Assembly (NCBI GenBank): GCA_003135435.1
Contig: PLBR01000102.1
Location: 13,303 to 73,944, forward strand
Origin: Nitrospira sp.
GTDB lineage: Bacteria > Nitrospirota > Nitrospiria > Nitrospirales > Nitrospiraceae
Reading direction: 5' to 3'
DNA length: 60,642 nt
In this document: in pieces, positions 43,558 through 57,816 of the stretch
How the letters are laid out: each line of letters begins with the position of its first letter
Numbering within the stretch: the first letter of the stretch is position 1
The notes under the pieces: generated by a model
What the model saw: only the letters and a program-made list of their open reading frames with translations
What the model was told of the DNA's origin: nothing
The model's database searches: none
Made by a program: the position numbers and the translations under genes

Positions 43558-43665
43558 ATTTGCCGAATCCCCACCGAAATAAAGTCTAGAATATCCAATT
43601 CTCGATTAGACCAAGTAGAACAGTCAGCCGGTCTCAACTTATTGATTAAACAAGAGCTTCGGGGT

Positions 43666-44811
43666 ATGCTCCAAGAGATGGTCACTGAGAAAAAGGCCCT
43701 CACGGTGCTCGCCAAGCGCCAACGCAAGAAGAGACCCAACAAGAGCCGATGGGATGTATCCCCGCGGCCCACCGACCAGCGTCTGGACTTCCCACCAGAG
43801 TACGAGGAGGTCGGTGCAGGAGCAGATCCCAGTGAAGAGGACTACGACCTCATCGGACCAGTGATCCTCGCCTATAACGAAGCCTTCCAGCACCGTCGAC
43901 CGACCACACGCTACCAGTATGAGAGCACGATCAACGGGTTCCTCACGGCCTTGAAGCTCCATGAGAACTTACCGATACAGATGATCGACCGTGAAGCCTG
44001 CCAGCGATGGAAGGCGAGCCTGTTGAATCAGACCATCGGAAGGAAACGGAAGGCGATCTCGACACAACAGAAACTCAAGGCGTTCGGGCACTTCACCCGC
44101 TGGCTGGTCGCTCAGGACTTTCACGGGTTCGCACTCGACCCCATGCGAGGACTGCTGTTACCCGCTCGTGTGGTGGCCGATTCGAAGACGCGCAAAGAAG
44201 CCTTCACAGATCCCGAGCTGGCGATTATCGTGAGCGCCCTCGCACCGTTCAGAGATCACGACCAACCAAACAAGCGAGAGTTCTATTGGCTGCTGCTGTC
44301 CCTGATGGTGACAGGTGCTCGCATGTCAGAGCTCCTCGACATCAAGGCCATCGACATTCGCCCGGTGGAAGGCATCCACTGCTTCGATATCAAGTCTAGT
44401 GAAGGGCGGAACATCAAGACCAAGTCCTCTCACAGGAAGGCGCCGATCCATTCGCAGCTCATCGGCTTGGGGTTCCGGGACTGGCTCGCAGCCGGCACGA
44501 CTCCTCATGCATTCCCGCTGCTGAGCACGGCTGGCGTACCGCTGGTGAGTAGGTGGGTCGGTGATCTCCTCAAGAGCTGTGGAGTGAAGCGTCCTGAAGT
44601 ATCGGCGCATAGCCTACGACACAGCATGACGGTCAACCTTGAACGAGCCAAGGTGCATCCGTCCGTCATGGCGAAGATCCTGGGACATGCGCTTGTTGGG
44701 AGAGGAGTAGAGGGGACGACGTATCTGCAGAGTCTGAGTTATCCGGTGAAGGAGCTAGCGGAGGCAGTGGAAAAAGTCAGGTTCCCACTGTCCGGCGAAG
44801 GTGTGCCGTAG
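43666..44811 (+). CDS. tyrosine-type site-specific recombinase (phage integrase family)
   Basis: First ATG at 43666; the track start 43642 is TTG. C-terminal catalytic pattern TGARMSEL......DI, AHSLRHSM and ILGH......Y. Confidence 0.85.
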   Translation: MLQEMVTEKKALTVLAKRQRKKRPNKSRWDVSPRPTDQRLDFPPEYEEVGAGADPSEEDYDLIGPVILAYNEAFQHRRPTTRYQYESTINGFLTALKLHENLPIQMIDREACQRWKASLLNQTIGRKRKAISTQQKLKAFGHFTRWLVAQDFHGFALDPMRGLLLPARVVADSKTRKEAFTDPELAIIVSALAPFRDHDQPNKREFYWLLLSLMVTGARMSELLDIKAIDIRPVEGIHCFDIKSSEGRNIKTKSSHRKAPIHSQLIGLGFRDWLAAGTTPHAFPLLSTAGVPLVSRWVGDLLKSCGVKRPEVSAHSLRHSMTVNLERAKVHPSVMAKILGHALVGRGVEGTTYLQSLSYPVKELAEAVEKVRFPLSGEGVP

Positions 44812-44817
44812 GGCGAC

Positions 44818-45567
44818 TTAACACTCTGCGGTCAGCTCGCAATCATCTAAAGAGATATGGTGCAAACTAAAATCTTTTACTTGCCCAAGGACCATGACAG
44901 GATCTCCTCGCTTCAATTGAAGGAGACGATGATACCACGTGTTTCTATTAAAATCTAAATAGAGAAACGGGTGTTGACTCGGCACCGGGTCGCATCCCAT
45001 TTTATCGTACCCCTCTATGGACAGGCGCATTCGGTTCTTGTCCGCGTGGGGCTCTGTAACATCCTTTACTCGTCCAGTAATTTTCATCCATTTTCCTAAA
45101 TGGTTTTCTTTGAGTCTCTGAGTCTGTATTGTTGTAAGCCCTTTTAACAACCCCACGAGGTATTCAGGCCCGCTGTCCATCACCTCATAAATAGCATCGT
45201 GGGCACCAGCTTGTAAAACAATATCAAGGTTCGGGTTCTCACTCTTTTTAGGCTGTGTCTTAACCAACTTAGTTAGTCCATCAGGCAATGCCGTAGTCAC
45301 ATCTGCTTGCCTTTCGTCTTTGCCTGTTCTCCGGCGAGCGAACAGCTTTTCTGGCACTTCATAGGCGATTAAAAGCATGACCACACCAATAAAGGTAACT
45401 ATCGAGCGCCCTACATTGCCAAGCATGTTCGCATCCCAGTTTACGACGACACCTGCCAGAGATATGAAATACTTCGCCCACTTTTGGATTTGTTCCGGGA
45501 GATCAATTATGCCAATAACCGTGAAAACAAAACCAAAGAACCCAAGAATCTTCCGTAGCAAAACCAT
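44818..45567 (-). CDS. membrane-anchored protein with C-terminal OB-fold-like domain
   Basis: Two N-terminal hydrophobic helices. The C-terminal HLGKWMKITGRVKDV...RGDPVMVLGQVKDF...ISLDDCEL resembles the tRNA_anti-like OB pattern. The DNA is visibly AT-richer than the flanks. Confidence 0.55.
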   Translation of the reverse strand: MVLLRKILGFFGFVFTVIGIIDLPEQIQKWAKYFISLAGVVVNWDANMLGNVGRSIVTFIGVVMLLIAYEVPEKLFARRRTGKDERQADVTTALPDGLTKLVKTQPKKSENPNLDIVLQAGAHDAIYEVMDSGPEYLVGLLKGLTTIQTQRLKENHLGKWMKITGRVKDVTEPHADKNRMRLSIEGYDKMGCDPVPSQHPFLYLDFNRNTWYHRLLQLKRGDPVMVLGQVKDFSLHHISLDDCELTAEC

Positions 45568-45704
45568 CGCGCACCCTCCAATCAGATAGGGCGTAGGGTG
45601 GCAGAACTGACAGAGGCTGTCCAGGCAAGTTCGGGATCACCGCCCTTGCGAGGACTCAGGACAGCTCCGAGCCCGCCTGGGGCGAGCCGAGGTCGCAGGT
45701 CGCG

Positions 45705-45734
45705 TTGACAGCTTTTAACACTGTGGGATAGAGT
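45705..45734 (+). promoter_or_regulatory. sigma70-like promoter candidate
   Basis: TTGACA (45705-45710), 18 nt, TAGAGT (45729-45734), 20 nt upstream of the ATG at 45755. Confidence 0.3.
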
Positions 45735-45754
45735 TGGCCTCAAGAGGGGTGCGT

Positions 45755-46099
45755 ATGATCTCTGGAATTTTCTCAGCCGAGTTTACGTCAAACAAGGACA
45801 TGATGGGCCGCGGTGTTGCTGTTTTCTCAGGGAACGCAATCCATGGTGGGGATGCAGCATATTACTACCGAGGAAAATACAGGCTAGACGCGAGCAATCA
45901 AATTTCAGGAACGATAGAGGCTGTCAAATACTCACCAGTCCAGACTTCAGTCGTTGGCCCACTGGACCGATTCCGACTTATACTCAACGGCATCGTAAAT
46001 GATCAGGGATTTGAACTGTCAGGCCCGGTTGAGGGCCACCCGGATTTACTGATTAGAATTACCTTGAAGAAGATCGATGAATTGATTGAACTTGATTGA
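45755..46099 (+). CDS. GrlR-family-like small protein
   Basis: ATG 45755 after AGAGGGG. G.F...F.......G.GVAVF.GN.I.GGD..YYY.G.Y matches my memory of the GrlR-family (lipocalin-like) N-terminal pattern. Confidence 0.5.
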   Translation: MISGIFSAEFTSNKDMMGRGVAVFSGNAIHGGDAAYYYRGKYRLDASNQISGTIEAVKYSPVQTSVVGPLDRFRLILNGIVNDQGFELSGPVEGHPDLLIRITLKKIDELIELD

Positions 46100-46389
46100 A
46101 GCTTCTCTATTCCACCTGCATCGGGTCGATCTGTCAGACATCATCGGCTGACTCGGCATGACCTACCGACCCTGCCCAAGGCCCTGGATGGCTAGGCAGC
46201 GGGGAACGGACAGGGCTTCGGTGCCTTCTCGCCTTCCCATTTCGTCAGCATCTCGCTGATCCCTGCGAGGCCGGGCAGATGATACAGTCGTGAGGGGGGA
46301 GCCCTACGAGATCCTCGCCGATCATTCTGAGAAGGACGGCGATGAGCCCTGACCCTTCTCTATAGCGCACTTGCCAGCTGGTCAATTCA

Positions 46390-47016
46390 ATGGACTTTCC
46401 ACTTTCAGACCACGCGCTAAAACACGAGTCTGACCGTGGTGCCGTTCTCGTTGGAGCCGCTATGCTCGATGAGAGCTTAGCGCGACTCTTGAGGGCCGCG
46501 TTCATTTCTAAAGAACCAGTCCAAAAGAAATCGATCAGTAAGTTATTTGGGCCTAATGGACCACTTTCAAGTTTTTGGGCGAAACTGCACCTCGCAAATG
46601 TCCTCGGTCTCTTGAATTCATCACTACACTCTGATCTTGAGGTTTTCCGAAAGCTTAGGAATCGCTTTGCTCATCAGATGGAGCCCGCTGATTTTGGTGA
46701 TACGACCGTCCGACATTTGGCGAACCTACTATCGACAACCGTTCATCTTAGAGTCGGGATGGACACATATACCGCACAGGCAACAGATGGGAAGAAGGTC
46801 TCTGAAGATCAACTTGTTAAGGACGGATATGTTAAGACTGCTAGAGCTGAGTTCAACGTGTGCCTTTCGCTTTCACTAGCAATAATAGAAGGCATTACTG
46901 CAACGGTTTCAAAGTCTGGAATTGAGGCGGGTCGCCTAATGGCTCAAGAACTTGGCAACTTCGGAGAGGTATATCTTAAATACAAAAAAGAGCAAAGTAG
47001 AAGTGGCTCGTTATAG
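46390..47016 (+). CDS. MtlR-like (mannitol-repressor-like helical domain) protein
   Basis: SDRGAVLVGAAMLDESLARLLRAAF....LFG.NGPLSSFWAKLHLA..LGLL.......L..FRKLRNRFAH fits the pattern typical of that domain. The C-terminal half is unassigned. Confidence 0.5.
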   Translation: MDFPLSDHALKHESDRGAVLVGAAMLDESLARLLRAAFISKEPVQKKSISKLFGPNGPLSSFWAKLHLANVLGLLNSSLHSDLEVFRKLRNRFAHQMEPADFGDTTVRHLANLLSTTVHLRVGMDTYTAQATDGKKVSEDQLVKDGYVKTARAEFNVCLSLSLAIIEGITATVSKSGIEAGRLMAQELGNFGEVYLKYKKEQSRSGSL

Positions 47017-47127
47017 TTGTTGTTCCTGTTGAGGGAGAGTGGAGAAGGGTGCGGTTCCCGGCGTAGAGAGACACCGTCCAGCTGAAGATACTCAAGAGGC
47101 GGTGGACAAGTTGGACTTGGGGGTGGA

Positions 47128-47721
47128 CTAGGCAGTCAGAAGGATGGCCGCCACAAATGCAATCATGAAAACCAAAATGATAGGGGCCAACCATCGGCGG
47201 AGACTGTTGAACTGTTCCTCACCGCGCTTAACCCTTTCCCACTCTGTCTTCAGAACGGTTCGTGACTGATTGGTAGCAAGCCCAATTGCTGCAAAGACGT
47301 TTTCTCTCATCTTGGGGTTGTTGGAACCTTCTGCGTTGTACTGGTCAACGACAGCATCCACTAGACGCTCCAACTCGATATGTTCGGTCTTCATCTTGTT
47401 TAGTCTAAGCTTGATTCGGTATCGCGTCTCACCTATGGTCATAAGTGAATCCGCAATGTGATCAGCGGATGCAGGATATGGGCGGGTTCTACCATCCTTG
47501 CCTGCCTCTAGAACGTCGTGAACGGCATTTGCCAAATATCGAAACCCAGCAAAGAACTTAGCCAAGTCTTCTCGCAGACCATCGATCCAAGCCTGCCGCA
47601 TTTCGGAAACTTTTTGCTCCTTGCTCAGGGTCAGATTTACTATTGCGATAACGCCAGTGATTAGCGCCGCGACTACCGTAGCAATTGCGACTATCGCTGT
47701 AGCAGGAATCGCAGTATGCAT
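47128..47721 (-). CDS. membrane protein, one N-terminal and one C-terminal TM helix
   Basis: ATG at 47719-47721; the track GTG start 47781 would overlap the next gene. Hydrophobic ends flank a helical soluble middle. Confidence 0.5.
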   Translation of the reverse strand: MHTAIPATAIVAIATVVAALITGVIAIVNLTLSKEQKVSEMRQAWIDGLREDLAKFFAGFRYLANAVHDVLEAGKDGRTRPYPASADHIADSLMTIGETRYRIKLRLNKMKTEHIELERLVDAVVDQYNAEGSNNPKMRENVFAAIGLATNQSRTVLKTEWERVKRGEEQFNSLRRWLAPIILVFMIAFVAAILLTA

Positions 47722-48459
47722 TATGGCCCCGACCTTGGTTCTAACGTGTGCTGCGGGGCAGTCTACCCCAAAGTCGGACACGTATCCATCACACCGGCTA
47801 GACCTTCTCCCGGACCTATAGACCTTGCGCCGCCGTTCGCAACCCTCCTACAATACGCCTTCCTACCTACGAGGCTTCTGGTGAAACCTAAGTTTCCCAA
47901 ACTCTTGAAGCTCTTGCAAAGACGAGAGTTCCCCAAACTCTATGCGTTAGCTAGCATCTGGGTTGCGACTCCGTTACTTTACATCTGTACGTTTGTCTAT
48001 ATCCAGAATGCTATCTTTCAACCAGCAGCCCGCGCGTTCCCAATAGGGCTGTCAGCATTCGGCGTGACGGCGGCCTTGTCTGGTATTTCTTTCAGCATGG
48101 CGAGGGTTTCCGAAAATCCCAGCACAGCTAAATATGCGGGAGAGAAGTTTCTACACTCGGCCATTCTTCTCATTCAGGGCCTCTTTCTCATTTACATTCG
48201 TGACTCAGTGGGAGAGAGTGAATTACTAAAACCGTGGCCGAACCTTGTCTTAGTCGTCAAGGCATCTACTGTTGGTCTGCTTACTCTCCTGACGGCAGCA
48301 GCCGCGTGGACGTGGTTCCACGGATTCGAAGAACTCAACAAGTTCTTATGGAAGAACTGGGAAGAAAACATTCAGGCTATGAACGCACGCCAGCAGGACA
48401 AAGCCCCCATCGTTGTTCCGTTGGAGGCGGATAAGGACATACCCAACCAAAAGGCCTAG
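47716..48459 (+). CDS. multi-TM membrane protein
   Basis: At least four hydrophobic segments. A GTG at 47881 with an upstream GAGG is an alternative start. Confidence 0.45.
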   Translation: MHYGPDLGSNVCCGAVYPKVGHVSITPARPSPGPIDLAPPFATLLQYAFLPTRLLVKPKFPKLLKLLQRREFPKLYALASIWVATPLLYICTFVYIQNAIFQPAARAFPIGLSAFGVTAALSGISFSMARVSENPSTAKYAGEKFLHSAILLIQGLFLIYIRDSVGESELLKPWPNLVLVVKASTVGLLTLLTAAAAWTWFHGFEELNKFLWKNWEENIQAMNARQQDKAPIVVPLEADKDIPNQKA

Positions 48460-48710
48460 ACCTTCTCCCGGAGCCTTGCGTTGATCTCACTGATGAGCCC
48501 CTGGAAAAGTACGAACTTCTTGGGATGATCGGTCAGTAGGCGATCGATCCGGTGGAGAAGGGTCACCCTGGTCATCCTCGCTGCTCGCTCCTGTCGTTCG
48601 ACGGTCCAGGCATCGGTGTAGACCTTCCAACCTGCGTTGGCCCTGGTCTGCTTTGCTTCTGCCCTAGCGTTCTTCTGGCTGGCCGTTCGCTCTGTACGAG
48701 TAAGCGCCAT
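48456..48710 (-). CDS. small basic protein
   Basis: 84-aa ORF rich in R/K/T with no family recognised. Its 4-nt overlap is with the convergent gene's stop. Confidence 0.4.
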   Translation of the reverse strand: MALTRTERTASQKNARAEAKQTRANAGWKVYTDAWTVERQERAARMTRVTLLHRIDRLLTDHPKKFVLFQGLISEINARLREKV

Positions 48711-48835
48711 GATGGTTTCACTTCTCCTGTTGGATTTGATGGTTGGACTGAAACTGGTTTCACGAGAACTGACCAGATGGACAGCTGGCGTGAAACTGGC
48801 CTGAGATGAGCGCGGTACTCTACTCTTACCATGAG

Positions 48836-48973
48836 CGGTACCCTGCTGGACTGTTAGCGGTACCCTCTGCCGCTGGTCTAACCAATACCCCAGAGTAAGA
48901 CCCTGAGCTTTCTCTGTTGGGTTGATGTCGAACAGGTGGCAGAACGGTGAGAGAACAGTCCAGCAGGGTACCG
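48836..48973. repeat. perfect 18-bp inverted repeat CGGTACCCTGCTGGACTG / CAGTCCAGCAGGGTACCG separated by 102 bp
   Basis: Arms at 48836-48853 and 48956-48973. Extra direct GCGGTACYCT copies at 48811 and 48857. TGAAACTGG and TGGTTTCAC repeats at 48711-48800. Confidence 0.7.
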
Positions 48974-49027
48974 AAAACAGGCCTCGCTATAGTCATCCTC
49001 AAGTAGGAGGGGGTACACCCTTATAGA

Positions 49028-50521
49028 TCAACAGGTTATGAGGCCAACTTTTCCATGTGACGGAATTTGACACCCTGTGATCTTGAGGGAGACTGATTGC
49101 ATAATTACTGAGATCCGGTCAGCCTGAGAGATTGGGACAACCAGGCAATCGTGGACCGGGAGACCGATCAGACCTTCCTGCTTGAGTTGCGAGAGCGCGG
49201 CGATAATAACTTGACTTTCGATGAACTGCAGGCCGTGCCCTTTGTTGTCGCCTAGCAGGTGCGCAATGGGCCGGTGTTGCGTCTTGATGAGTTCGATGAT
49301 CTTCCTGGCACCCTTGGCTCTATCGGCTTTGGTGAACTTGTTTCCGCTACCTTTGGGGAACTTGCGACGGTTCGGCTTCTTATCGAAGGTGAGGGCGAGC
49401 ATGAGCGTCTTGATTCCTGAGCGGCTGGCTGGATCAGTTCCGGTGATGTGGTAGATGTCGGCCGCTGGTGGTGCTGCGTTGACGGAGGCATAAAGTGAGT
49501 GAAAAGGAATGGAGTTGTAGTCAAGCTCCACAGTCCGCTCTCCGTTCAGTAAGATCCGTTCGCGTCGATCCACCTTAGACATCGGCGTCCAAAATCCGCC
49601 GAGAAGCCTTCCGCCTGATGTCCAGCTCGCATAGGTGAATTGTCGCTGGAGGAATCGGTCTCGTACGTCGATGAAGGGGAGCCCTTCCCGATTGATCACG
49701 AGGATGTTGGATTTCCACAAGAGTTCGTTGACGTGTTGCATCTCCAGCCGGTAGCCGTTGGCGAGCACGTCGAGATCTGAGTACTCGTCGAAGGCGCTGG
49801 TCTTGTCCTTCTTGCGCCGGATGATCTCCTGGCCTGTGCGGTCCCAGGAGGTATCGAGTGGAGAGGTAACGTGACAGTCGACCATGAGATTGCGAAGGGT
49901 GCGTGTGCTGCGAATGAGGGATTTATCTACGCCGCTTTCTGGTCTTGTGTGGCTTCTCCAGGCCTGTCCGCGAACTTGTTGGAACAGTCCGCATTCGGTG
50001 AGGGCATCGATCACCGGAAGGAACCGGCGGTTGACGTGCAGAGGGCGATAGCGTGAACGGATGCTGTACCAGGCTTTCGTCCGTGAGAATGTCACGCCTT
50101 CAATGGTGGGATCGGTCAACTCCGCATTCACGACAGCGGAGAGGGCTCCAGCGACGAGTACGCGGTACTCGGCCAGGTCGACAGCGGAGAGTGTGAGACC
50201 CTTGCGCTGCCAGAAGTGGCGTTGGTAGCGGATGAACTTTTCCCAACAGAGTTCGATCAGCGAGAACATCGCGGGGGTCGCCGGGATGCAGTAATAGTCA
50301 AAATCCTTGCGGGCGGTGTCGTCCTCGTCGTCCACGGCAACAGCAAGCCGCGTCACGTCATCTGCCGTTGGCGTCTGTGTCGTCCACGCTTCGACAAGCG
50401 CCGGGAGCATCTTCTCTTTATCTTTACCGGCCCAGAACGCCACCTTGGAGTCTGCGGAGTGCGTGCGCTTGCTTGCAGCTTTCCATCGGGGAAGAATTTT
50501 GTTGAGTGCGGTGATGTTCAT
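49028..50521 (-). CDS. family-A (Pol I/T7-like) polymerase-like protein, minimal palm/fingers, no exonuclease domain
   Basis: TSGGRL (aa 301-306, compare TxxGRL of Pol I). Motif A VELDYNSIPFHSLYA (compare DYSQIELR). Motif B RSGIKTLMLALTFD (compare RxxAKxxNFGxxYG). Motif C LPVHDCLVV (compare QVHDELV). Confidence 0.65.
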   Translation of the reverse strand: MNITALNKILPRWKAASKRTHSADSKVAFWAGKDKEKMLPALVEAWTTQTPTADDVTRLAVAVDDEDDTARKDFDYYCIPATPAMFSLIELCWEKFIRYQRHFWQRKGLTLSAVDLAEYRVLVAGALSAVVNAELTDPTIEGVTFSRTKAWYSIRSRYRPLHVNRRFLPVIDALTECGLFQQVRGQAWRSHTRPESGVDKSLIRSTRTLRNLMVDCHVTSPLDTSWDRTGQEIIRRKKDKTSAFDEYSDLDVLANGYRLEMQHVNELLWKSNILVINREGLPFIDVRDRFLQRQFTYASWTSGGRLLGGFWTPMSKVDRRERILLNGERTVELDYNSIPFHSLYASVNAAPPAADIYHITGTDPASRSGIKTLMLALTFDKKPNRRKFPKGSGNKFTKADRAKGARKIIELIKTQHRPIAHLLGDNKGHGLQFIESQVIIAALSQLKQEGLIGLPVHDCLVVPISQADRISVIMQSVSLKITGCQIPSHGKVGLITC

Positions 50522-50628
50522 GTCTCGATATGCTCCATTTTCAGTGGTTGTTAGAACGGGTCGTGAAACGTCAGTTAACGCCCTCGCCTTGCGGTTGGAG
50601 GCGACCCGTACCTTGCTCTGTTACGCTG

Positions 50629-50757
50629 TTACGTACATCCCTGTAGCCCGTTCTTCTTGGTCACCTTGAATATCGTGATGGTCGCAGCCTTGTAGATGCT
50701 GCAGCCGGGGAGGGCGAGTGGGAGAGCGCGCGCGATAGCTGTGATGAGTTTGAACAT
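50629..50757 (-). CDS. 42-aa putative lipoprotein
   Basis: Not in the ORF track because it is under 60 aa. ATG at 50755-50757 follows AGAAGGAGATCAAACC. MFKLITAIARALPLALPGCSIYK has a lipobox-like LPGC. Confidence 0.35.
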   Translation of the reverse strand: MFKLITAIARALPLALPGCSIYKAATITIFKVTKKNGLQGCT

Positions 50758-50892
50758 GGTTTGATCTCCTTCTGTTGTTTGTTTGTTTGTGGTCGTTCAT
50801 CCACTAACGGATTGTCTCCAGACACGCCGAAGCCCCACTAGGATTGATTTCCTAGTGAGGCCCCAACTACCTATGCTATTGCCTATTCTACG

Positions 50893-51237
50893 TTATTGGC
50901 AATAGGTCTGCTTCCCGTTCGTGGTGCATGTCTGTGGTCGTCCCCCATTCTGATACGGACTGACCAGGCTATACGAATGGTTCCGTTCGCTGTCCCGCTG
51001 GACCTGTCGCTGTGCTTCGCGGCTTCGCTCCTCAGCCTCTCTGTGTTGCTCCGCTTTATATTCGTGATCGCGTTGTTCAGCTTGCAGCGCCTCATTTCTC
51101 ACGGTGTCCTGGAACGCTCGGTTGTCGAGGTCCTCGTCAGCGGCCAATGCGAGACCAGCCCCGATCAAACCACCGAGCAAAATCCCAAGTGAGACACTAG
51201 CACCTCTAACCACTGTGGATCTGATTCGGTTGCCCAT
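50893..51237 (-). CDS. N-terminally anchored protein with charged helical ectodomain
   Basis: ATG at 51235-51237 after GAGAGG. TM segment VSLGILLGGLIGAGLALAA, then an E/R/Q-rich segment. Confidence 0.5.
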   Translation of the reverse strand: MGNRIRSTVVRGASVSLGILLGGLIGAGLALAADEDLDNRAFQDTVRNEALQAEQRDHEYKAEQHREAEERSREAQRQVQRDSERNHSYSLVSPYQNGGRPQTCTTNGKQTYCQ

Positions 51238-51572
51238 GTGTTCCACCTCTCATCTGTTTGTGACATGTTGCTACTACGTGTGAGCTTAAGCCGCTTCCCG
51301 CGTTCGTGGTATTCCTCGAACGTACTGGGTCGCTCATGGTTGGCTGTCGCTCGTCGCGTCTGGGTCGGAGCCCTATCGAGCCACCATTCGATGAACCCAT
51401 GATCGATGCTGCCTAGCTTCGTGATCGCCAGTCTGCGTGACCGTTCCCTTGGGTTCCCTTGCAGGACCTCCAGCGGAGAGCGCGTCTCCGGCTCGGTGCT
51501 TTGCCTCTGCGGTCGCCAGTATTTTGGAGGCTTCGTGAGTTTTGCGTGCGTGCCGATCTTTTGGAGTGCCAT
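51165..51572 (-). CDS. hypothetical protein
   Basis: 135-aa ORF in the island gene array. Its 3' end overlaps the next gene by ~73 nt, so the end or frame is uncertain. Confidence 0.35.
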   Translation of the reverse strand: MALQKIGTHAKLTKPPKYWRPQRQSTEPETRSPLEVLQGNPRERSRRLAITKLGSIDHGFIEWWLDRAPTQTRRATANHERPSTFEEYHERGKRLKLTRSSNMSQTDERWNTWATESDPQWLEVLVSHLGFCSVV

Positions 51573-51757
51573 CAGTGCGCGTCCCGGTGCGCGTTGAACG
51601 CATTGAGTACGGCCGCATCAGTCGCTGCCACTGCGACCCCTTGGACGAGCCGAGCTACTCCATCTTTCATGGACGCGCTTTGGTCTCGGTCTGGAATGGT
51701 CGTCACGATATCTGAGCCATTGGCAGCGGTGCCGTGGTCGGTCCTGGTCGTGCTCAC
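51572..51757 (-). CDS. hypothetical small protein
   Basis: 61-aa ORF joined to its neighbours by short (1- and 4-nt) start/stop overlaps. Confidence 0.4.
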   Translation of the reverse strand: MSTTRTDHGTAANGSDIVTTIPDRDQSASMKDGVARLVQGVAVAATDAAVLNAFNAHRDAH

Positions 51758-52386
51758 GATCTAATCCCGCCCAGATCTACTGCCTCAGAAGAGCGACCAG
51801 CGTCTACTCTGTCGTGCTTCTCCTGGATTGTTTTCTTATCGGCTAACGCTCGATACGCAGCTTGCTCATCTCGAATGGATTGAGCACTGCCGTTTCCCAG
51901 TTCAACGCGCACCTTCGTGTTGACCTTCTGAGCCGTCCTATCCACGAACCGGTCGCCCATCACGGAGTCGATCTCATCATTGTGATCAATTAACCACTGA
52001 CGAACCTCTTCCCGGTAGCTTGGAGAGTGCTCGTATTTGAGCCGGCCTTGCTCGTCCTTCGCCATGAAGAGGTTCTGCGCGTGTTCGTTGGCGATCTCTC
52101 GCAGGACTTGCTTCCTCGCGCCTTCAGGATCGCTCATCGCCCGCGCCAGTTCACGACCACTGACCACGGTAGAAGGAGCGTTCACCTTCGCAGCCGCTTC
52201 GTTCTTCATTCTATTTTCGATCATCTTGGAACACAGCAAGCGGAGCGAGGGATCAGTCTGATATTCCTTCATCCGCTGGACTTGGTGCATCTCCTCATCG
52301 CTGTTGAACGCGCATGTCTCTGGGTCGAGCATCTGGCCGGTGGTGCGGTCTAGGAGCCATTTGTTATCTTTCGGTACGGTGATCAT
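51754..52386 (-). CDS. hypothetical phage-like protein
   Basis: ATG at 52384-52386 after GGAAGGAAAG. 210 aa, charged and helical. Confidence 0.6.
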   Translation of the reverse strand: MITVPKDNKWLLDRTTGQMLDPETCAFNSDEEMHQVQRMKEYQTDPSLRLLCSKMIENRMKNEAAAKVNAPSTVVSGRELARAMSDPEGARKQVLREIANEHAQNLFMAKDEQGRLKYEHSPSYREEVRQWLIDHNDEIDSVMGDRFVDRTAQKVNTKVRVELGNGSAQSIRDEQAAYRALADKKTIQEKHDRVDAGRSSEAVDLGGIRS

Positions 52387-52388
52387 GG

Positions 52389-52694
52389 TTACTTTCCTTC
52401 CTGTGGTGTGAGGGGTGATGTAGGCGCTGTCTCGTCGCCGGTCTGTGATGACCCCATGTTGAGCCATGCGTCGGAGCGGCGAGCGTGTGCCGCCTGCTTC
52501 TCTGTGGCGATCTCTTCGGGTGTGCTCTCTTTGCGTGTGACGCGAACCGTTCCAGAAGCGAAGCGTTCGCACTTGGAGTGACTGTCTTCGGACAGGATAA
52601 TAGAATCCATCGTGTCTGCGACCACGTCCACAGTGGCGGGTGGCTTGCTGAACGATACGGGGAAGGTGGGAGGTGTGTACGGTTTCGGTGGCAT
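52389..52694 (-). CDS. hypothetical protein
   Basis: 101-aa ORF ending 2 nt before the next start. Confidence 0.5.
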   Translation of the reverse strand: MPPKPYTPPTFPVSFSKPPATVDVVADTMDSIILSEDSHSKCERFASGTVRVTRKESTPEEIATEKQAAHARRSDAWLNMGSSQTGDETAPTSPLTPQEGK

Positions 52695-52698
52695 CTAG

Positions 52699-52974
52699 TT
52701 ATTTCCTCTTCGAGATATAGGTTGAGTCTGTGGCTCGGGCGCATTCATGTCTGATGGTGCCAACGTCTTGACGACTGAGTGATTCCGCATAGACGGCGAA
52801 CGCTCGCCTTGCTGCAGTTGAGCGCGAGACCGGAACCGTGGGTGCATCGCTGCCACGTCTGAGTAGGTCTTGAATGGTCAGCAAGTTCGCAACGGCGGCG
52901 GCGTCCAGTTCCATTGTGAGACGGTTTTTTGCAGCGCTGCCATACTTCATCTTAGGGGCGCGGTCTGGTTGCAT
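52699..52974 (-). CDS. hypothetical protein
   Basis: 91-aa ORF. ATG preceded by GGAGGTTTTTAACG. Confidence 0.5.
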   Translation of the reverse strand: MQPDRAPKMKYGSAAKNRLTMELDAAAVANLLTIQDLLRRGSDAPTVPVSRSTAARRAFAVYAESLSRQDVGTIRHECARATDSTYISKRK

Positions 52975-53186
52975 CGTTAAAAACCTCCAGTGTTAATGCG
53001 TGAAAGAGTGTGATTACACGGGAAACGAAAACCCTTTCCCCTCCCCAACGTGAAAGGAACCCACAGCGCCGTTATTGGCACCAAGGAACACGTCGAAGAG
53101 AGGTCGAGGCTAAGTCACACTTTGCGATGGTGGAACATCAGCGCAGTCGTGACAAAGAAGACGAGGTATGTGAAACCGTGCAGCAT

Positions 53187-53381
53187 TTAGTGATCCGTGC
53201 GCGTGGTCGTTTCGTTGGGAGGACTACCAGCCTGTCCTTCCGTCTGGATCACAGGTGGGATAATGCTGACTACTGGCGACTGGTGCGCTGCATCTTGACC
53301 GTTCGTGGCTGGTGATGCTGCATCGATCCTGACAGTCTGGCCTACTGGGAACACTTGGACGCCGTTAACGATTGTACTCAT
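53187..53381 (-). CDS. hypothetical small protein
   Basis: 64-aa ORF, third in a row of three small genes separated by 3-37 nt. Confidence 0.45.
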   Translation of the reverse strand: MSTIVNGVQVFPVGQTVRIDAASPATNGQDAAHQSPVVSIIPPVIQTEGQAGSPPNETTTRTDH

Positions 53382-53384
53382 CGC

Positions 53385-53585
53385 TTATGCCCACTTAATG
53401 CCTAAAGGTTGGGTGCTGTCAGCTGTCAGTCGTTGGGTGTCGGTGGCTGCGGGGATCGTGGTCCACTTGTTCGTCACCGGGTTCCAGCACACGAGGTCAC
53501 CCTTCTGCGCATAATTTGAGGTGTCCGGGTGACTGTCGGCGGGCGTGACGGGGATTGAGATGTTGGATGGAACGATGGCGCTCAT
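53385..53585 (-). CDS. 66-aa protein, paralogue of 53623..53823
   Basis: Shares YAQKGDL....N..T......P......Q.LT.DS....LGIKWA with its neighbour. Confidence 0.6.
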   Translation of the reverse strand: MSAIVPSNISIPVTPADSHPDTSNYAQKGDLVCWNPVTNKWTTIPAATDTQRLTADSTQPLGIKWA

Positions 53586-53622
53586 GCTGGTTGTTTCCTT
53601 AATTCGTTAGAGGGTGAACTTC

Positions 53623-53823
53623 TTATGCCCACTTGATGCCAAGCGCGGTCGATGAATCGAGGGTCAAGATCTGACCATTCGTACCCACCGGAAGCCGTTC
53701 AAACTTCAGCGTGGTCGTGTTATACACTCGGAGATCTCCCTTCTGCCCGTAGATCATGGGGTCTTGCGTAGCATCGTTGCCTGGGAGTTCCGGGGAATAG
53801 TTGCCGGGAATGACACCTGCCAT
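53623..53823 (-). CDS. 66-aa protein, paralogue of 53385..53585
   Basis: MAGVIPGNYSPELPGNDATQDPMIYGQKGDLRVYNTTTLKFERLPVGTNGQILTLDSSTALGIKWA. The pattern recalls N-terminal modules of phage tail-fibre/receptor-binding proteins. Confidence 0.6.
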   Translation of the reverse strand: MAGVIPGNYSPELPGNDATQDPMIYGQKGDLRVYNTTTLKFERLPVGTNGQILTLDSSTALGIKWA

Positions 53824-53865
53824 AGTAATTTTTCCTTTATGTGGTGAGGTTGTTGTGGCCGACTG

Positions 53866-56403
53866 TTACTGCTGCGCGGGAGGATTGGCGATGGTGTCGA
53901 GGCTATCGTACTGCCGTGATCCTCCGACTCCAAAGCCAAAGTCTGTAGAGGCGTTTTCTCTCGCAGCGCGTTCCATATACCGTGCCTTGACGCGCTTCTT
54001 GATCAGGTCCTCGGTAGCCAGTTCTCGTTGTGCGGCTGGTGCCTGTGGGAACCGCCTGTCGAACTCTGCGCGGATCGCGGCTCGCTCTTTGGTGTCCGCT
54101 TCCGCCTGCGTGAGTGGCTTGGCTGGCACGAACGTGTCGCCATTCCAGTGACCAGGATTCCCATACTTCGCATACTTCGACTCGTCGGAGAACGTGGGAT
54201 GATTAGGAAGCTTGAACGTATCCGGCCAGTGTCCCGTCTTTGGATCAGGTTTGATTCCCGCTTGGAATGCCCCACGGAGATCGTAGTCTTGACCACTGTC
54301 TCGCGGTGCGTAGACCTTCTTCCACTCTTGGAACTTTACTTCGTCGGCTGGTGAGAGTTTCGTGCGAAGGTGATCGAAGTTGGCGGGCTGGTGATCGGCT
54401 ACAGGCTCTTTCCCGTTAAACCTGCGGGCCGCATCGTGACCTTCCTTAAGGATACCAGAAGCGTTCGCACGATCCATCAGGGCGATCCGGTCAGTCTCTG
54501 CCTGGGCCTTCATCACCTGCAGCTCCTCGTCAGGGCCTTGATGTACCCACTCGCCGTTCTTGTTCTTGAAATCTCCACCGATCTGACTGTTGTGTGTGAT
54601 CGCCTTCGCCGCCGTCTCTGACAAGGCCAGATCCGTGATGATCTTTTGTTTCGCCTTCTCGGTGTCCTGTCGCTTCTTCTCCTCCCGGGCCATGTCGTTG
54701 TAGTTGAACGCGGTCGGTTCGACGCGCTTCCGCATCTCAGCAGTAAACGCAGCCTGGGAGATGTTGGGATGGTGATCGAGGTATTCGATACCTTGCGCTC
54801 TAAAATCTGACTGGGCGAGCGTGGCTGCTATGTTGCCTGTTCCAAACAACGCGGTCTCATCTTTCAAGCTCGCCTTGCCCACTCCGCTTTCGAGGACGGC
54901 ATAGCCTGGATCAGATAAGAAGTTGTGATATTTTAGGTCCGCTTGCCCCATTGTTTTGTTGAGTTCATGCGAACGGAGCCAGCCTTCCACGCCAATGCGA
55001 TGATCCTTCATGGCCTGATCAATCATCCCGGTGGTCTTCGTGGTGCCTGGGTGTTGTGTGATTTCTGCTCGGAGTTGCATCTCAGTTTGCGGGAACGCTT
55101 CCTTATCCCCGAGGTCTGCGCGATGCTCACGTTGTTTCATCACTTGCTCCCCCAGGTGCTCCGCGTGTGCCGGGCTATCTTTGCGTACCTCTTCCAGTCG
55201 CCGGTCTTGTTCTGCGACATCTGCCGGACTCATCGCTTGGAGATCGGGGAAGTTGAACACGTTATTCGTGTGCGCCTGGGTGAGTTGCTTGAGCTGGAGG
55301 TCCTGTCGCTCCCAATCGTTCTTCATCCGCGAGGCGTCCACCGCTGAACGCTTGCCGGCGATCCGTTGCTCGTCTGTGCCAAGGATGGCTTGGTCTTCGA
55401 GGTAGTTCTTCGCCACCAAGTCTTGATGCTGTTGAGCCACAATGTGGTCTCTCACCGGCCCGGACATGGTGATAAAATCATTCGTCTTCGTGATGGGTGC
55501 GACACCACGCTCCTTCCGTTCCTGATCAACCGCCTGACCGATGGTGTTGACGAGTGTGGAGTCCTTCGCGTTCTTCGACGCCTGCGCGATTCCAAGCACT
55601 ACCATCTGAGTCGCTCGGGTGCCGCGCATGCCGGTTTCCCGCATGGCCTTTTCAGTCGCCGCGATCTCTACAGCAGCTGGCGCAAAGTTCCGCGCATGCG
55701 GCTCTAGCGGTTGTCCATCCGTGCCGACAAGGGAGCGCCCGATGGCTGATTCGACACTTGAGGCAAGCGTGTCCTCGCCCTTCTTCGTGCGCTCGTCCAC
55801 GATCACCGAGGTGTTGTGGGCGTTCAGGTGTGCGATGGCTTCGTGTTGGATGAACCCGTACTGACTGTCAGCCAGCTGTTTTGGGGAGAACTTCGCCGTC
55901 GCGCCGTCGTAGAGGTGATCCTTGTTGTACTGTGCGGCATGGTCCGTCGAGAACTTCTCGAACGCGCCTGGAGGAGCATCGAGTTGTGCGACCCCGGACT
56001 GTGACCAGGCGTTTGTCAGGTCAGCGGCGTAGTCATCGGCATATCGCTTGGCGTCGAGCGTCTTATAGCGATCTTCATAGAAACGTGACTGACCGGGCTC
56101 GATGAGACCTTCTCGCACGGCATCGCCATAACTTTTCTGGGTGCGAAGGTGATCCTCGTCGGCCTTGGCGAGTTGTTGGGCGGTGGACTGCTGACCGAGC
56201 CGGCCCGCATATTGTTGGAGTGCAGGATTGAGTTCCGAGAGACCAGCCGCGAATTGTTCCAGCTGGTTGACGTTGGGAACTTGCGCAACTTCTCTTTCAG
56301 TGGGAGCCTTGTATGGTGCGCCGATGATCTGGGCTTGCGGCTGGAGGTCGGGAGCTTGCACGATCTCGTCGGCAATGGCTGGACGTTTGAATGGATTGGC
56401 CAT
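53866..56403 (-). CDS. large (845 aa) phage-like structural/ejection-type protein, function unknown
   Basis: Long uninterrupted ORF, helical and charged. The C-terminal block DYDLRGAFQAGIKPDPKTGHWPDTFKLPNHPTFSDESKYA resembles a module I have seen in phage virion proteins. Confidence 0.75.
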   Translation of the reverse strand: MANPFKRPAIADEIVQAPDLQPQAQIIGAPYKAPTEREVAQVPNVNQLEQFAAGLSELNPALQQYAGRLGQQSTAQQLAKADEDHLRTQKSYGDAVREGLIEPGQSRFYEDRYKTLDAKRYADDYAADLTNAWSQSGVAQLDAPPGAFEKFSTDHAAQYNKDHLYDGATAKFSPKQLADSQYGFIQHEAIAHLNAHNTSVIVDERTKKGEDTLASSVESAIGRSLVGTDGQPLEPHARNFAPAAVEIAATEKAMRETGMRGTRATQMVVLGIAQASKNAKDSTLVNTIGQAVDQERKERGVAPITKTNDFITMSGPVRDHIVAQQHQDLVAKNYLEDQAILGTDEQRIAGKRSAVDASRMKNDWERQDLQLKQLTQAHTNNVFNFPDLQAMSPADVAEQDRRLEEVRKDSPAHAEHLGEQVMKQREHRADLGDKEAFPQTEMQLRAEITQHPGTTKTTGMIDQAMKDHRIGVEGWLRSHELNKTMGQADLKYHNFLSDPGYAVLESGVGKASLKDETALFGTGNIAATLAQSDFRAQGIEYLDHHPNISQAAFTAEMRKRVEPTAFNYNDMAREEKKRQDTEKAKQKIITDLALSETAAKAITHNSQIGGDFKNKNGEWVHQGPDEELQVMKAQAETDRIALMDRANASGILKEGHDAARRFNGKEPVADHQPANFDHLRTKLSPADEVKFQEWKKVYAPRDSGQDYDLRGAFQAGIKPDPKTGHWPDTFKLPNHPTFSDESKYAKYGNPGHWNGDTFVPAKPLTQAEADTKERAAIRAEFDRRFPQAPAAQRELATEDLIKKRVKARYMERAARENASTDFGFGVGGSRQYDSLDTIANPPAQQ

Positions 56404-56409
56404 GATGTA

Positions 56410-56712
56410 TTATCCCTTCGTCTCGTCGGCGTAGGTGTCCTTGACCATCAGGCGGATTTCGGCTCGCAGCATACCCACGTCCAGGTCTTCGTTGTCGCTG
56501 GCATAGATGGCGAGGTGCTTCGCATATTCCTGGAGCGCCCTCCGCACGAAGCTTGAGAGATTCACGGCTGGTACAAGGACCTGACAGCGTGCGATGATCT
56601 GGTCGAGGGCCGCCTTGTCAGCGGCTGGAAGCAGGATGGAGATCCGGGCGTCGGTGCCCTTGATCGTGTTCGGTCTGCGCTTGGCAGAGGTGGGGACGTA
56701 GTGGTTGCCCAT
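56410..56712 (-). CDS. small protein, possibly ribbon-helix-helix DNA-binding
   Basis: ATG at 56710-56712. RISILLPAADKAALDQIIA looks like an RHH beta-strand plus helix. Lies immediately downstream of the iteron region. Confidence 0.45.
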   Translation of the reverse strand: MGNHYVPTSAKRRPNTIKGTDARISILLPAADKAALDQIIARCQVLVPAVNLSSFVRRALQEYAKHLAIYASDNEDLDVGMLRAEIRLMVKDTYADETKG

Positions 56713-56843
56713 GATGTGAAGAACTCCTGTTGTTGTAGGTTGATGGTGAGGGAGGCTTGATACTATTTGCTGAAAAAAGGTGCATGAATCCGAATGGTTA
56801 CCCGCCAGCATGAGCCAGCGGGTGAGTAAGCGGGGAGGAACGT

Positions 56844-57119
56844 AAGTGGTCCACAGAGCACCAGGCGAAATCGAATGATGATCTCCACAGAGGGGAACAT
56901 TGAAAAAACCGTGGAATGTGAGTGGTCCATGGACCAGGCTGTTGCGAAAAAGTGTTAGTGGTCCGCAGAGTACGTCCTAAAATCGAATGATGATCCTCCA
57001 AGGAGTGTGTCCTGAAATCGAATGATGATCTCCACAGATGAGTACATAGCAAGTGCAGTGCTGAAGGTCGCCGGGTGACCGGCTCAGACGAAATGAAAAA
57101 ATGTTTCTCTTCCACAGAG
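56844..57119. repeat. iteron-like direct repeats in a 570-bp ORF-poor spacer
   Basis: AAATCGAATGATGATCTCCACAGA at 56868-56891 and 57015-57038 are identical over 24 bp, with a variant at 56980-57003. AGTGGTCCRYRGA occurs at 56844, 56920 and 56956. TCCACAGAG recurs at 57111. Confidence 0.7.
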
Positions 57120-57285
57120 GAAGTAGTTGCAAATGCACCCTGCCCACACCACGACTTACGTGCAAACATTCAAGTAGAATTAGAAGGTTGCGTTGAATCG
57201 TGGCGTGGGCGTAGGCGATGAGGCTAGTTGGCACGGGTTTAGTATGTCGTCTTGTTCAAGTAAACCTTAAGGGTGCAGGGTGAGG

Positions 57286-57816
57286 TTACAGGAGCCCACG
57301 TCTCCCGGCTTCCTCCATGCTGATGAACTCTTCATCGGCGCGCTTGTCTCCGGGGAGCCGTCTCAGTCCGGTTCTCTTCTCGCGTGCCATCCGCTTCGCT
57401 TGCTTGGCGTCGAGGAGGAGTTTCTCGTCATAACTGCGCTGTTCCTTGAGACCGTGATCGGCCCATTGCTTCAGCATCGCTTTGTCGAACCGTGCCATCT
57501 CCACGGCTTCGAGTTCGCGCTTGAACATTGGACGCCACTGCTTACCGTTGCGCATCCATGGTTGTGCGGGAGAAGCATCGACTACGCGGGCTGGCGAAGT
57601 GCTGGCGGTATAAGGCGGGAGTTCAGATATACCCGGCTCTGTCGCGTCTCCTGCCGTTAGCTTACTCGTCTCCTTACCGTTCTCCTTACCGTTCTCTTTC
57701 TCTTCTGGCGCAAGGCCCTCGTTGCTGCCGCCTTGCATGTTCCTGAGTACTTCACGAATGGCTGTCTCGCGCTTCCGGCTGCGTTCGAGTTCGAGGAGGT
57801 CACTCTTAACACTCAT
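57286..57816 (-). CDS. hypothetical protein (charged, low complexity centre)
   Basis: 176-aa ORF. ATGA overlap with the upstream gene. Confidence 0.55.
   Translation of the reverse strand: MSVKSDLLELERSRKRETAIREVLRNMQGGSNEGLAPEEKENGKENGKETSKLTAGDATEPGISELPPYTASTSPARVVDASPAQPWMRNGKQWRPMFKRELEAVEMARFDKAMLKQWADHGLKEQRSYDEKLLLDAKQAKRMAREKRTGLRRLPGDKRADEEFISMEEAGRRGLL

Follow-up and report, generated by a model that had tools for sequence, protein, structure and literature searches.

A probable TV-Pol-type family-A polymerase on an integrated element of Nitrospira

Which kind of enzyme is encoded by the gene at positions 49028..50521 of a 60,642-nucleotide stretch of Nitrospira sp. DNA, and what does this enzyme do for the integrated element that carries it? 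The stretch, referred to here as the window, is taken from contig PLBR01000102.1 of assembly GCA_003135435.1 (positions 13,303 to 73,944 of the forward strand). A first-pass annotation had described the product as a minimal, nuclease-free polymerase resembling those of family A, such as DNA polymerase I (Pol I), and had placed its gene on an island. Our analysis indicates that the gene very likely encodes an active family-A polymerase of the TV-Pol ('transposon-virus polymerase') type on a mobile island. TV-Pols were described computationally by Iyer, Abhiman & Aravind 2008 (Biol Direct 3:39; PMC2579912).

The open reading frame (ORF) was found on the minus strand as described, with 497 residues and an ATG start, and it is called as a gene at 49028..50521 in public assemblies containing an identical protein. 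The motif positions given in the first-pass annotation are exact on the translation: T301-R305 (TSGGR) at 49607-49621, V331-Y335 of motif A (VELDY) at 49517-49531, R367-D380 of motif B at 49382-49423, and V456-C459 of motif C (VHDC) at 49145-49156. The parts of the gene and of its product are as follows.

49028..50521, minus strand: probable TV-Pol-type minimal family-A polymerase gene, 497 aa, ATG start (ORF, homologue family, AlphaFold and Foldseek)
50327..50521, minus strand: helical extension at the N-terminus, specific to the clade, residues 1-65, with a disordered linker after it (alignment and per-residue model confidence, pLDDT)
49652..50326, minus strand: N-terminal domain, residues 66-290, candidate 'TV-PolN' region (separate domain model)
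49586..49657, minus strand: beta-hairpin with the invariant arginine R305, residues 289-312, SGGRLLGGFW (counterpart of Pol I TATGRLSS, R668)
49487..49540, minus strand: motif A, residues 328-345, VELDYNSIPFHSLYA, with the catalytic D334 (hhalign to Pol I D705)
49448..49465, minus strand: fingers Asp/Tyr, D355 and Y357 (conservation)
49382..49423, minus strand: motif B, residues 367-380, RSGIKTLMLALTFD, with R367 and K371 (aligned to Pol I R754/K758)
49178..49240, minus strand: helix preceding motif C, residues 428-448, GHGLQFIESQVIIAAL, with E435-S436 (aligned to Pol I MQGTAADII)
49133..49168, minus strand: motif C, residues 452-463, IGLPVHDCLVVP, with H457 and the catalytic D458 (aligned to Pol I H881-D882)

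The initial homologue search returned 15 uncharacterised proteins, whose invariant columns coincide with the motifs of the first-pass annotation. A profile search of 1.84 billion cluster representatives yielded 10,740 clusters at E<=1e-3, of which 3,957 reach E<=1e-30, and the size of the family is stated here as at least 10,740 clusters at 50% identity. Its members are mostly full-length, with about 420-460 residues; a word-indexed homologue search with the profile gained only fragments. Residue conservation was counted over an alignment of 135 homologues, whose identity to the window protein is only 23-30%. G304, R305, R319, D334, Y357, R367 and K371 are invariant, and at least 133 sequences retain R293 (134), F295, W311 (134), Y344, D355 (134), E435 (133), S436 (134), P455, H457 (134) and D458 (134). 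The first-pass annotation had staked its interpretation on the catalytic aspartates of motifs A and C. As both D334 (135/135) and D458 (134/135) are conserved, the interpretation withstands this comparison.

The structural evidence points in the same direction. An AlphaFold2 model computed with the family alignment (pLDDT 83.7; predicted template modelling score, pTM, 0.73) shows hairpin strands at residues 291-295 and 303-308, and a helix at 364-379 which carries R367 and K371. Long helices were found at residues 83-106 and 113-136, and another (252-270) precedes the hairpin. In a Foldseek comparison with the PDB, 63 matches were obtained at E<1e-3. Family-A DNA polymerases make up the whole of the top 50, with a probability of ~1.0, among them the Bst and Taq (KlenTaq) large fragments, Pol theta and M. 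smegmatis Pol1. The palm and fingers fold of family A, on which the first-pass annotation also depended, is therefore recovered. Among predicted viral structures, the best matches are uncharacterised phage proteins of ~430 residues from Aeromonas and Rheinheimera phages (template modelling (TM) score 0.5-0.7), followed by phage PolAs and then by the Zamilon virophage 'DNA replication protein' (E=5.7e-3, probability 0.99).

Direct sequence comparison is far less informative. The window protein matched nothing in Pfam, NCBIfam or the PDB sequences, the family profile likewise found no PDB sequence, and the sole PHROG match of the protein is phrog_4756, a group of unknown function (E=2e-19). None of 111 family members matched the Pfam models DNA_pol_A (PF00476) and RNA_pol, even at E<=10; a D5_N match in one member is sub-threshold and was taken as noise. 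With single Pol I, T7 DNA polymerase and T7 RNA polymerase sequences, hhalign aligned the correct motifs without significance. We also built a PolA polymerase-domain profile from 10 sequences (E. coli Pol I, T7 DNA polymerase and eight diverse phage PolAs), which aligned with the family profile at E=1.3e-4 over 137 co-linear columns spanning motifs A to C. This alignment maps D334 to D705 of E. coli Pol I, R367/K371 to R754/K758, FIESQ to MQGTAAD, and H457-D458 to H881-D882. It thereby backs the earlier view that the ESQ segment is QGTAAD-like. The absence of an exonuclease domain was also confirmed, in that no Pfam or NCBIfam domain was found and the fold search with the N-terminal domain returned no nuclease-like fold. 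In motif A, the family consensus VELDYGQMAPRILYG plainly resembles VSADYSQIELRIMAH of E. coli Pol I, and R305 occupies the hairpin position of both Pol I TATGR (R668) and T7 RNA polymerase DWRGR.

The polymerase is a minimal family-A core in which the hairpin arginine, the two metal-binding aspartates and the RxxxK of the fingers are strictly conserved, under strong purifying selection. With the canonical enzymes (Pol I and T7 DNA polymerase; PF00476), which are its best structural matches, it shares the palm and fingers, the TxxGR hairpin, motif A (DY.Q...R), motif B (R...K) and the HD of motif C. In contrast to them, it has no Pfam match and no exonuclease domain and is about half their size, and its family lacks the steric-gate glutamate, has Asn or Ser in place of F762, and replaces HDE by HD[A/C/S].

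The N-terminal part of the protein consists of two regions. In the homologue alignment, the extension formed by residues 1-65 occurs only in the window protein and in P0001-P0004, its relatives at 52-89% identity, and the linker at residues 52-67 has a pLDDT of <50. Residues 66-290, modelled as a separate domain (pLDDT 76, confident in part), comprise two long helices followed by an alpha/beta unit with a long beta-hairpin; R157, Y158, G185, D223, Y247, R258 and N265 are conserved there across the alignment. The comparison of the N-terminal domain (~290 residues) with PDB folds gave no significant match, the best being weak winged-helix-like matches (best E 0.08). Residues 66-290 probably represent the 'TV-PolN' region.

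TV-Pols were defined as proteins of 400-600 residues that contain no known domains, are never linked to nucleases, and come from phages, Sputnik and the mobile elements of various bacteria, in many cases alphaproteobacteria (PMC2579912). Their core comprises a thumb on two antiparallel coiled-coil helices, a beta-hairpin with an invariant arginine, an RNA-recognition-motif-like palm with two aspartates, and fingers with a conserved aspartate and RxxxK, which are inserted after the first palm strand (PMC2579912). The window protein presents each of the corresponding features that could be compared: a hairpin (291-295/303-308) with G304 and R305 in all 135 homologues; palm aspartates D334 and D458, conserved and mapped to Pol I D705 and D882; D355, present in 134 of the 135 and equivalent to the 'conserved aspartate' of the paper, together with R367 and K371 in a helix; and a length of 497 residues with no nuclease-like domain.

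The genomic settings agree as well. One group of TV-Pols is fused or linked to D5-like helicases, while the other has an N-terminal helical domain and is found with transposases, γδ-resolvase or λ-type integrase, in many cases close to restriction-modification genes (PMC2579912). We clustered the ORFs neighbouring the polymerase at 86 loci in 80 species-representative genomes, from taxa including Mesorhizobium, Rhizobium, Methylobacterium, Microvirga, Nitrospira, Desulfovibrionaceae and Burkholderiaceae. A resolvase (Pfam PF00239, E=7e-42) lies upstream of the polymerase on the same strand at 57 loci, a tyrosine integrase cluster was found at 51, and type I restriction-modification genes at ~16. 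At 45 loci the polymerase is flanked by a ~240-aa protein with three invariant cysteines and an invariant R-H-G, here called C3RH, which lies 37-252 nt downstream in 27 cases and ~2 kb upstream in 18 (L002-L081; e.g. L046 9423-10154). In the distant homologues, the polymerase, a serine resolvase and the C3RH protein form a compact module. As far as the caption of the supplement to the TV-Pol paper goes, the 'C3RHD' domain named there corresponds to the C3RH signature (PMC2579912). By analogy, and speculatively, the C3RH protein may be a zinc-binding partner akin to the zinc-binding domains of primases.

Homologues were also detected in 285 phage genomes, in all of which they are annotated as hypothetical. 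The carriers include Vibrio phages, Rheinheimera Barba phages and phages of Aeromonas, Shewanella and Klebsiella; ORF100 of Vibrio phage ICP1 is a homologue (ICP1_2006_E, L090 5008-6675). These phage genes sit amid small early-type genes. Members of the family are frequent on chromosomal islands and in large vibriophages.

With regard to the window itself, the island proposed in the first-pass annotation proved to be a real insertion with the following boundaries and integrase.

43596..59216, no strand: ~15.6-kb integrated element with an imperfect ~13-nt direct repeat, CCAATTCTCGATT (43596-43608) and CCCATTCTCGATA (59204-59216) (empty sites and junction mapping)
43666..44811, plus strand: tyrosine integrase at the left end of the element (Pfam Phage_integrase E=5e-10; NCBIfam tyrosine recombinase models)

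The element splits the rpoH-groES intergenic region of Nitrospira. In related Nitrospira contigs (L100-L104) the site is empty, rpoH being followed directly, after ~270 nt, by groES-groEL, and a direct repeat flanks the insertion. The mobility reported for TV-Pols is thus apparent here in an integrase-bounded insertion with empty sites, in the resolvase beside homologues, and in the phage carriers.

The gene was filed under TV-Pol on these defining features and this context, and not on a direct match to a named TV-Pol; the subgroup is that with the extra N-terminal domain. The likeness to this 'TV-PolN' subgroup covers size (400-600 aa), hairpin arginine, two-aspartate palm, fingers aspartate with RxxxK, freedom from nucleases and invisibility to standard domain models. 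It extends to the location on mobile elements beside γδ-resolvase or λ-type integrase, in regions rich in restriction-modification genes, and in phages. The window copy differs from the described TV-Pols in its host, Nitrospira, whose phylum is not listed in PMC2579912, and in residing on a 15.6-kb integrase island without a D5-like helicase, a resolvase or a C3RH partner; its protein also has the extra 65-residue N-terminus. Sputnik V13, the Zamilon virophage protein and polinton-like TVpol-helicase proteins share the TV-Pol-type polymerase domain, and the Foldseek match to the Zamilon protein provides a link to them. In these proteins, however, TVpol is fused to a C-terminal D5-like/superfamily 3 helicase and is the sole replication protein of a small virus, whereas the window protein is stand-alone and bacterial. 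The gene had been called the most unusual single gene in the window. Given that TV-Pols had already been described and that the family is very large, it is less singular than this implied.

What such an enzyme does for the element is a separate question. In 2008, TV-Pols were proposed to be a minimal, possibly ancestral form of the Pol I/T7 RNA polymerase superfamily and a third kind of primase. Iyer et al. included among them CcPol of the staphylococcal cassette chromosome SCCmec (PMC2579912). Together with MP, a protein with an oligonucleotide/oligosaccharide-binding (OB) fold, CcPol primes DNA synthesis with deoxynucleoside triphosphates (dNTPs), and by itself it only extends primers (Bebel et al. 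2020, eLife; PMC7581432). Enzymes of this kind, the PolA-SSB primases (SSB, single-stranded DNA-binding protein), are discussed in Rice 2023 (PMC10061031). In line with the proposal for TV-Pols and with the activity demonstrated for the related CcPol-MP, we tentatively suggest, by analogy, that the window enzyme may act as a primase-polymerase in the element's own DNA synthesis, a role that is plausible without being firmly indicated. After excision or entry of the element, the enzyme would start nucleic-acid chains on the element DNA and extend them briefly; its N-terminal domain would take the template-holding role of the separate SSB-like subunit of CcPol, and host replication proteins would carry out the bulk of the synthesis. 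The combined reading, a TV-Pol-type family-A enzyme with a primase-polymerase role, is the one that we modestly favour.

The resemblance to CcPol-MP lies in an A-family core on an integrative mobile element, the lack of functional proofreading, and a priming role on the element that is proposed in one case and proven in the other. The differences are considerable. CcPol can be recognised as a relative of Pol I, carries the annotation of an A-family polymerase and groups close to the canonical 'CHEAP' PolAs (PMC10201439). It has kept the steric-gate glutamate, F762 and part of an exonuclease domain, none of which is present in the window protein. Conversely, CcPol lacks the TV-Pol N-terminal domain (PMC10201439), whereas the window protein has an N-terminal domain of its own. 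Finally, CcPol requires the OB-fold subunit MP and is followed by the Cch2 helicase and large serine recombinases, which the window protein is without. The layout of the PolA-SSB loci, in which a small OB-fold SSB-like subunit is encoded directly behind the polymerase and precedes a helicase and serine recombinases, is not reproduced in the window, where the 84-aa ORF downstream of the polymerase has no family match, no helicase is recognisable and the recombinase is a tyrosine integrase.

Several observations weigh against the favoured reading. Searches of Pfam, PHROG, NCBIfam and PADLOC revealed no recognisable helicase, SSB-like protein, primase or other replication partner on the island, which removes the main contextual argument for a TV-Pol primase function. 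Apart from the polymerase, the island of the 53%-identical relative P0002 has in common with that of the window only a distant integrase (28%) and a single fragment of 43 residues, so no conserved replication module surrounds the polymerase in these two islands; this sparse sharing indicates that the polymerase is a module moving between otherwise unrelated integrative elements. The attP junction of an excised circle was absent from the metagenome contigs searched. Plasmid carriers number 2/72,556, by which the idea of a plasmid replicase is weakened. In large phages, homologues coexist with complete replication machineries, from which it follows that the family is no main replicase.

The identification of the enzyme is itself subject to reservations. 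Global TM-scores of the Foldseek matches to Pol I structures are ~0.27. The hhalign probability for the family profile against the PolA profile is only 54%, whereas the positive control, the divergent canonical PolA gp178 of Microcystis phage Ma-LMM01, reached 99.4% with the PolA profile (E=4e-21). The family thus branches off deeply and separately within the superfamily and is no ordinary PolA. CcPol is the only TV-Pol to have been assayed, no other having been characterised according to the authors of PMC10201439, and our later literature searches found nothing newer on TV-Pol characterisation. Moreover, Ma-LMM01 is a named TV-Pol carrier, and its only candidate, gp030, which lies beside transposases, is too divergent to give a significant hhalign result. 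In positions 1-150 kb of the Ma-LMM01 genome no ORF matched the hidden Markov model of the family, and in the last 12 kb only gp178 was compared (hhalign). Two further Ma-LMM01 proteins were rejected as TV-Pols: gp134 is a DnaG primase, and gp178 is a canonical PolA split into polymerase and exonuclease genes. The latter (L113 7270-8232) is a 320-aa 'DNA polymerase' encoded two genes from a separate 3'-5' exonuclease gene.

The mode of initiation had been raised by the first-pass annotation, which suggested a self-replication polymerase, possibly protein- or iteron-primed. The protein-primed variant finds no support: the element is integrated site-specifically by a tyrosine integrase at a short attachment repeat, its ends are direct repeats and not terminal inverted ones, and the element yielded no candidate for a terminal protein. 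We know of no family-A enzyme that is protein-primed.

The active site also bears on how chains could be started. Position 339, equivalent to the steric gate E710 of Pol I and to G542 of T7 RNA polymerase, is occupied by Ala (47), Gly (35), Asn (11), Met (6), Pro (5) or Val (5) and by Glu in 0/135 sequences; the window protein has Pro. The residue after the HD of motif C is Ala (100), Cys (18), Ser (10) or Gly (7) and not Glu, whereas Pol I and T7 DNA polymerase have HDE and T7 RNA polymerase has HDS. At position 379, the equivalent of Pol I Y766 and T7 RNA polymerase Y639, Phe predominates (93 of 135, with Tyr in 9) and is also found in the window protein, and position 375, equivalent to Pol I F762 and T7 RNA polymerase M635, is mostly Asn (78) or Ser (28). 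Sugar specificity lies beyond the reach of sequence, but the main barrier to ribonucleotides is absent. The lack of the steric-gate glutamate suggests that ribonucleotides may be used at least for initiation. A bolder proposal is that the N-domain TV-Pol clade constitutes a self-sufficient primase or RNA-synthesising polymerase of ~430-500 residues, in which the N-terminal domain would stand in for the SSB subunit of CcPol-MP as well as for the promoter-binding domain of T7 RNA polymerase, and the missing gate would permit ribonucleotide starts. We consider this proposal doubtful.

Four alternatives to the favoured reading were weighed. It is unlikely, in our estimation, that the protein is chiefly an RNA-synthesising enzyme, i.e. 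a very small single-subunit RNA polymerase or RNA primase which transcribes island genes or makes primers or other RNAs. The small residues at the E710 position, never Glu among the 135 homologues and comparable to G542 of T7 RNA polymerase, are compatible with it, as are the Ala, Cys or Ser that follow the HD of motif C in the manner of HDS and not of HDE. Nevertheless, DNA polymerases are nearest structurally, with no RNA polymerase in the top 50 PDB matches and the first phage RNA polymerase at rank 43 of the viral-structure list; Phe stands at the Y639 equivalent (93/135), none of the 111 family members matches Pfam RNA_pol, and CcPol, the sole assayed relative, prefers dNTPs (PMC7581432). 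A TATA-rich box resembling the T7 promoter core, located 3' of the polymerase gene, could be taken to favour transcription. This box is single on the island, however, where 14 matches were counted at <=3 mismatches against 12±3.7 expected, and no T7-type promoter-recognition elements are identifiable. With the T7-like single-subunit RNA polymerases and N4 mini-vRNAP, the window protein shares the superfamily, the D/TxxGR hairpin, a small residue at the steric gate and a residue other than an acidic one behind HD. It is less than half their size and has no identifiable promoter-recognition domain or specificity loop, and it differs from the T7-like enzymes in Phe at Y639, the lack of a recurrent promoter and weaker structural matches than to DNA polymerases. 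For the earlier suggestion of a miniature RNA polymerase, the missing steric-gate glutamate speaks in favour, and the lack of a recurring promoter motif and the DNA polymerases as nearest structures speak against it. An RNA polymerase with promoters dedicated to it finds no support.

The box lies in a region downstream of the polymerase which contains two features.

48977..49030, minus strand: conserved segment after the polymerase stop codon with the TATA-rich box GACTATAGCGAGG (comparison with relatives)
48456..48710, minus strand: small basic ORF, 84 aa, downstream of the polymerase (positional conservation in the clade)

About 55 nt after the stop are ~100% identical to the 89%-identity relative L096, which exceeds the conservation of the coding sequence, and TATA-rich boxes occur at the same place in the 52-53% relatives L097 and L084 (CTCAATGTAAGGTAGG and CTCAATATAAGGTGG). 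The box is not repeated elsewhere in the window. The idea of a T7-type promoter was rejected, as the motif occurs once in the window and looks like a -10 box that is kept in relatives; it is probably a -10-type promoter serving the small ORF downstream. In the window, L096, L097 and L084, the polymerase is followed by an ORF of 82-89 aa, with sequence similarity only between the window and L096 (61%); the 84-aa ORF has no family match in Pfam, PHROG, NCBIfam or PADLOC. Between the polymerase stop and the next ORF lies an element of ~140 nt (48836-48973) with a perfect 20-bp inverted repeat, which is unique in the window and as RNA has a folding energy of -77.5 kcal/mol compared with -53.4±4.1 for shuffled sequences (z=-5.9). 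It was rejected as a conserved cis partner of the polymerase, since the stem is not preserved in the 89% relative. It is a candidate for a terminator-like structure, a non-coding RNA or a recent insertion.

An accessory DNA polymerase without primase activity, strictly primer-dependent and serving in gap-filling, in second-strand synthesis after single-stranded entry, or in repair of the element, appears quite unlikely. The family-A fold and catalytic residues would suffice for it, CcPol alone is primer-dependent and requires MP for priming (PMC7581432), second-strand synthesis after transfer has been proposed for SCC enzymes (PMC10061031), and phages such as ICP1 encode full replisomes alongside the enzyme. 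The same job, however, is within reach of the host Pol I, and no conjugation or single-stranded-DNA-transfer genes are evident on the island in the family library searches. The strictly conserved N-terminal domain, together with the partner zinc protein in distant relatives, suggests instead a specialised function of the initiation type.

A role as a conflict-system effector, in anti-phage defence by the island or counter-defence by phages, with nucleic acid made as a signal, decoy or toxin and no replication of the element, is very unlikely. The polymerase, a distant homologue, the C3RH neighbour and the island cargo gave no PADLOC match, and the tightest linkage of the gene is to recombinases (resolvase at 57 of the 86 loci, and integrases), as is typical of mobility modules. 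This has to be set against the type I restriction-modification genes beside distant homologues (~16 loci), the phage homologues among small early genes and the movement of the gene between islands of otherwise unrelated content. Defence was also raised as a possibility for PolA-SSB primases by Rice 2023 (PMC10061031), and CcPol-MP has a terminal-transferase-like activity (PMC7581432).

That the motifs are a chance resemblance or belong to an inactive relic is barely credible: the missing Pfam, NCBIfam and PDB sequence matches of the window protein, the 0/111 members matching DNA_pol_A even at E<=10 and the low global TM-scores are outweighed by catalytic residues that are invariant or nearly so in 135 homologues at ~25% identity, exclusively family-A PDB matches in Foldseek at a probability of ~1, a profile-profile alignment co-linear across motifs A to C, and thousands of intact full-length members. 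The core of the first-pass annotation, a minimal nuclease-free family-A-like polymerase on a mobile island, is therefore upheld by Foldseek, by the profile-profile alignment and by the conservation of the aspartates; its functional options hold only in part.

The remainder of the element offers few further clues. It encodes an MtlR-like protein at 46390-47016 (Pfam PF05068, E=4e-12) and a weakly GrlR-like protein at 45755-46099 (E=2e-4, below the cut-off), neither of which matched a PADLOC defence model. The largest island gene, an 845-aa ORF at 53866-56403 on the minus strand, is rich in Q, A, K and D, has no P-loop and no match in Pfam, PHROG, NCBIfam or PADLOC, and may encode a virion or injected-type protein. 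No capsid partner was found on the island with these four libraries, and the remaining island genes received no family assignment from them. The islands of relatives contain faint T7 gp14 and T7 capsid-like matches, plus endonuclease VII. A 570-bp intergenic region (56713-57285), ~6 kb from the polymerase, contains the iteron-like repeat GGAGATCATCATTCGATTT three times and CTGTGGA about five times on the minus strand; from these repeats, it is a candidate origin or regulatory region.

The gene adds to a known but almost unstudied family, TV-Pol, and is not a new kind of enzyme. The window copy is a clean example of it, as its island is precisely delimited and the empty sites are known. The N-domain subgroup is enormous and is still overlooked by Pfam, NCBIfam, PHROG annotation and PADLOC. 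Model phages such as ICP1 encode members of it, and at two positions of the sugar and metal sites its substitutions are RNA-polymerase-like. A family of this size, unseen by the annotation libraries searched, found in model phages and bearing such substitutions, is a worthwhile target for experiments. If the proposal of a self-sufficient enzyme were true, the clade would contain the smallest known family-A enzyme initiating de novo, and would offer a living model for the ancestor shared by Pol I and the T7-type RNA polymerases, spread over more than 10,000 clusters including phage ICP1. The family thereby offers an entry point for asking by what means a family-A core may start synthesis unprimed and which purpose such polymerases serve for integrative elements.

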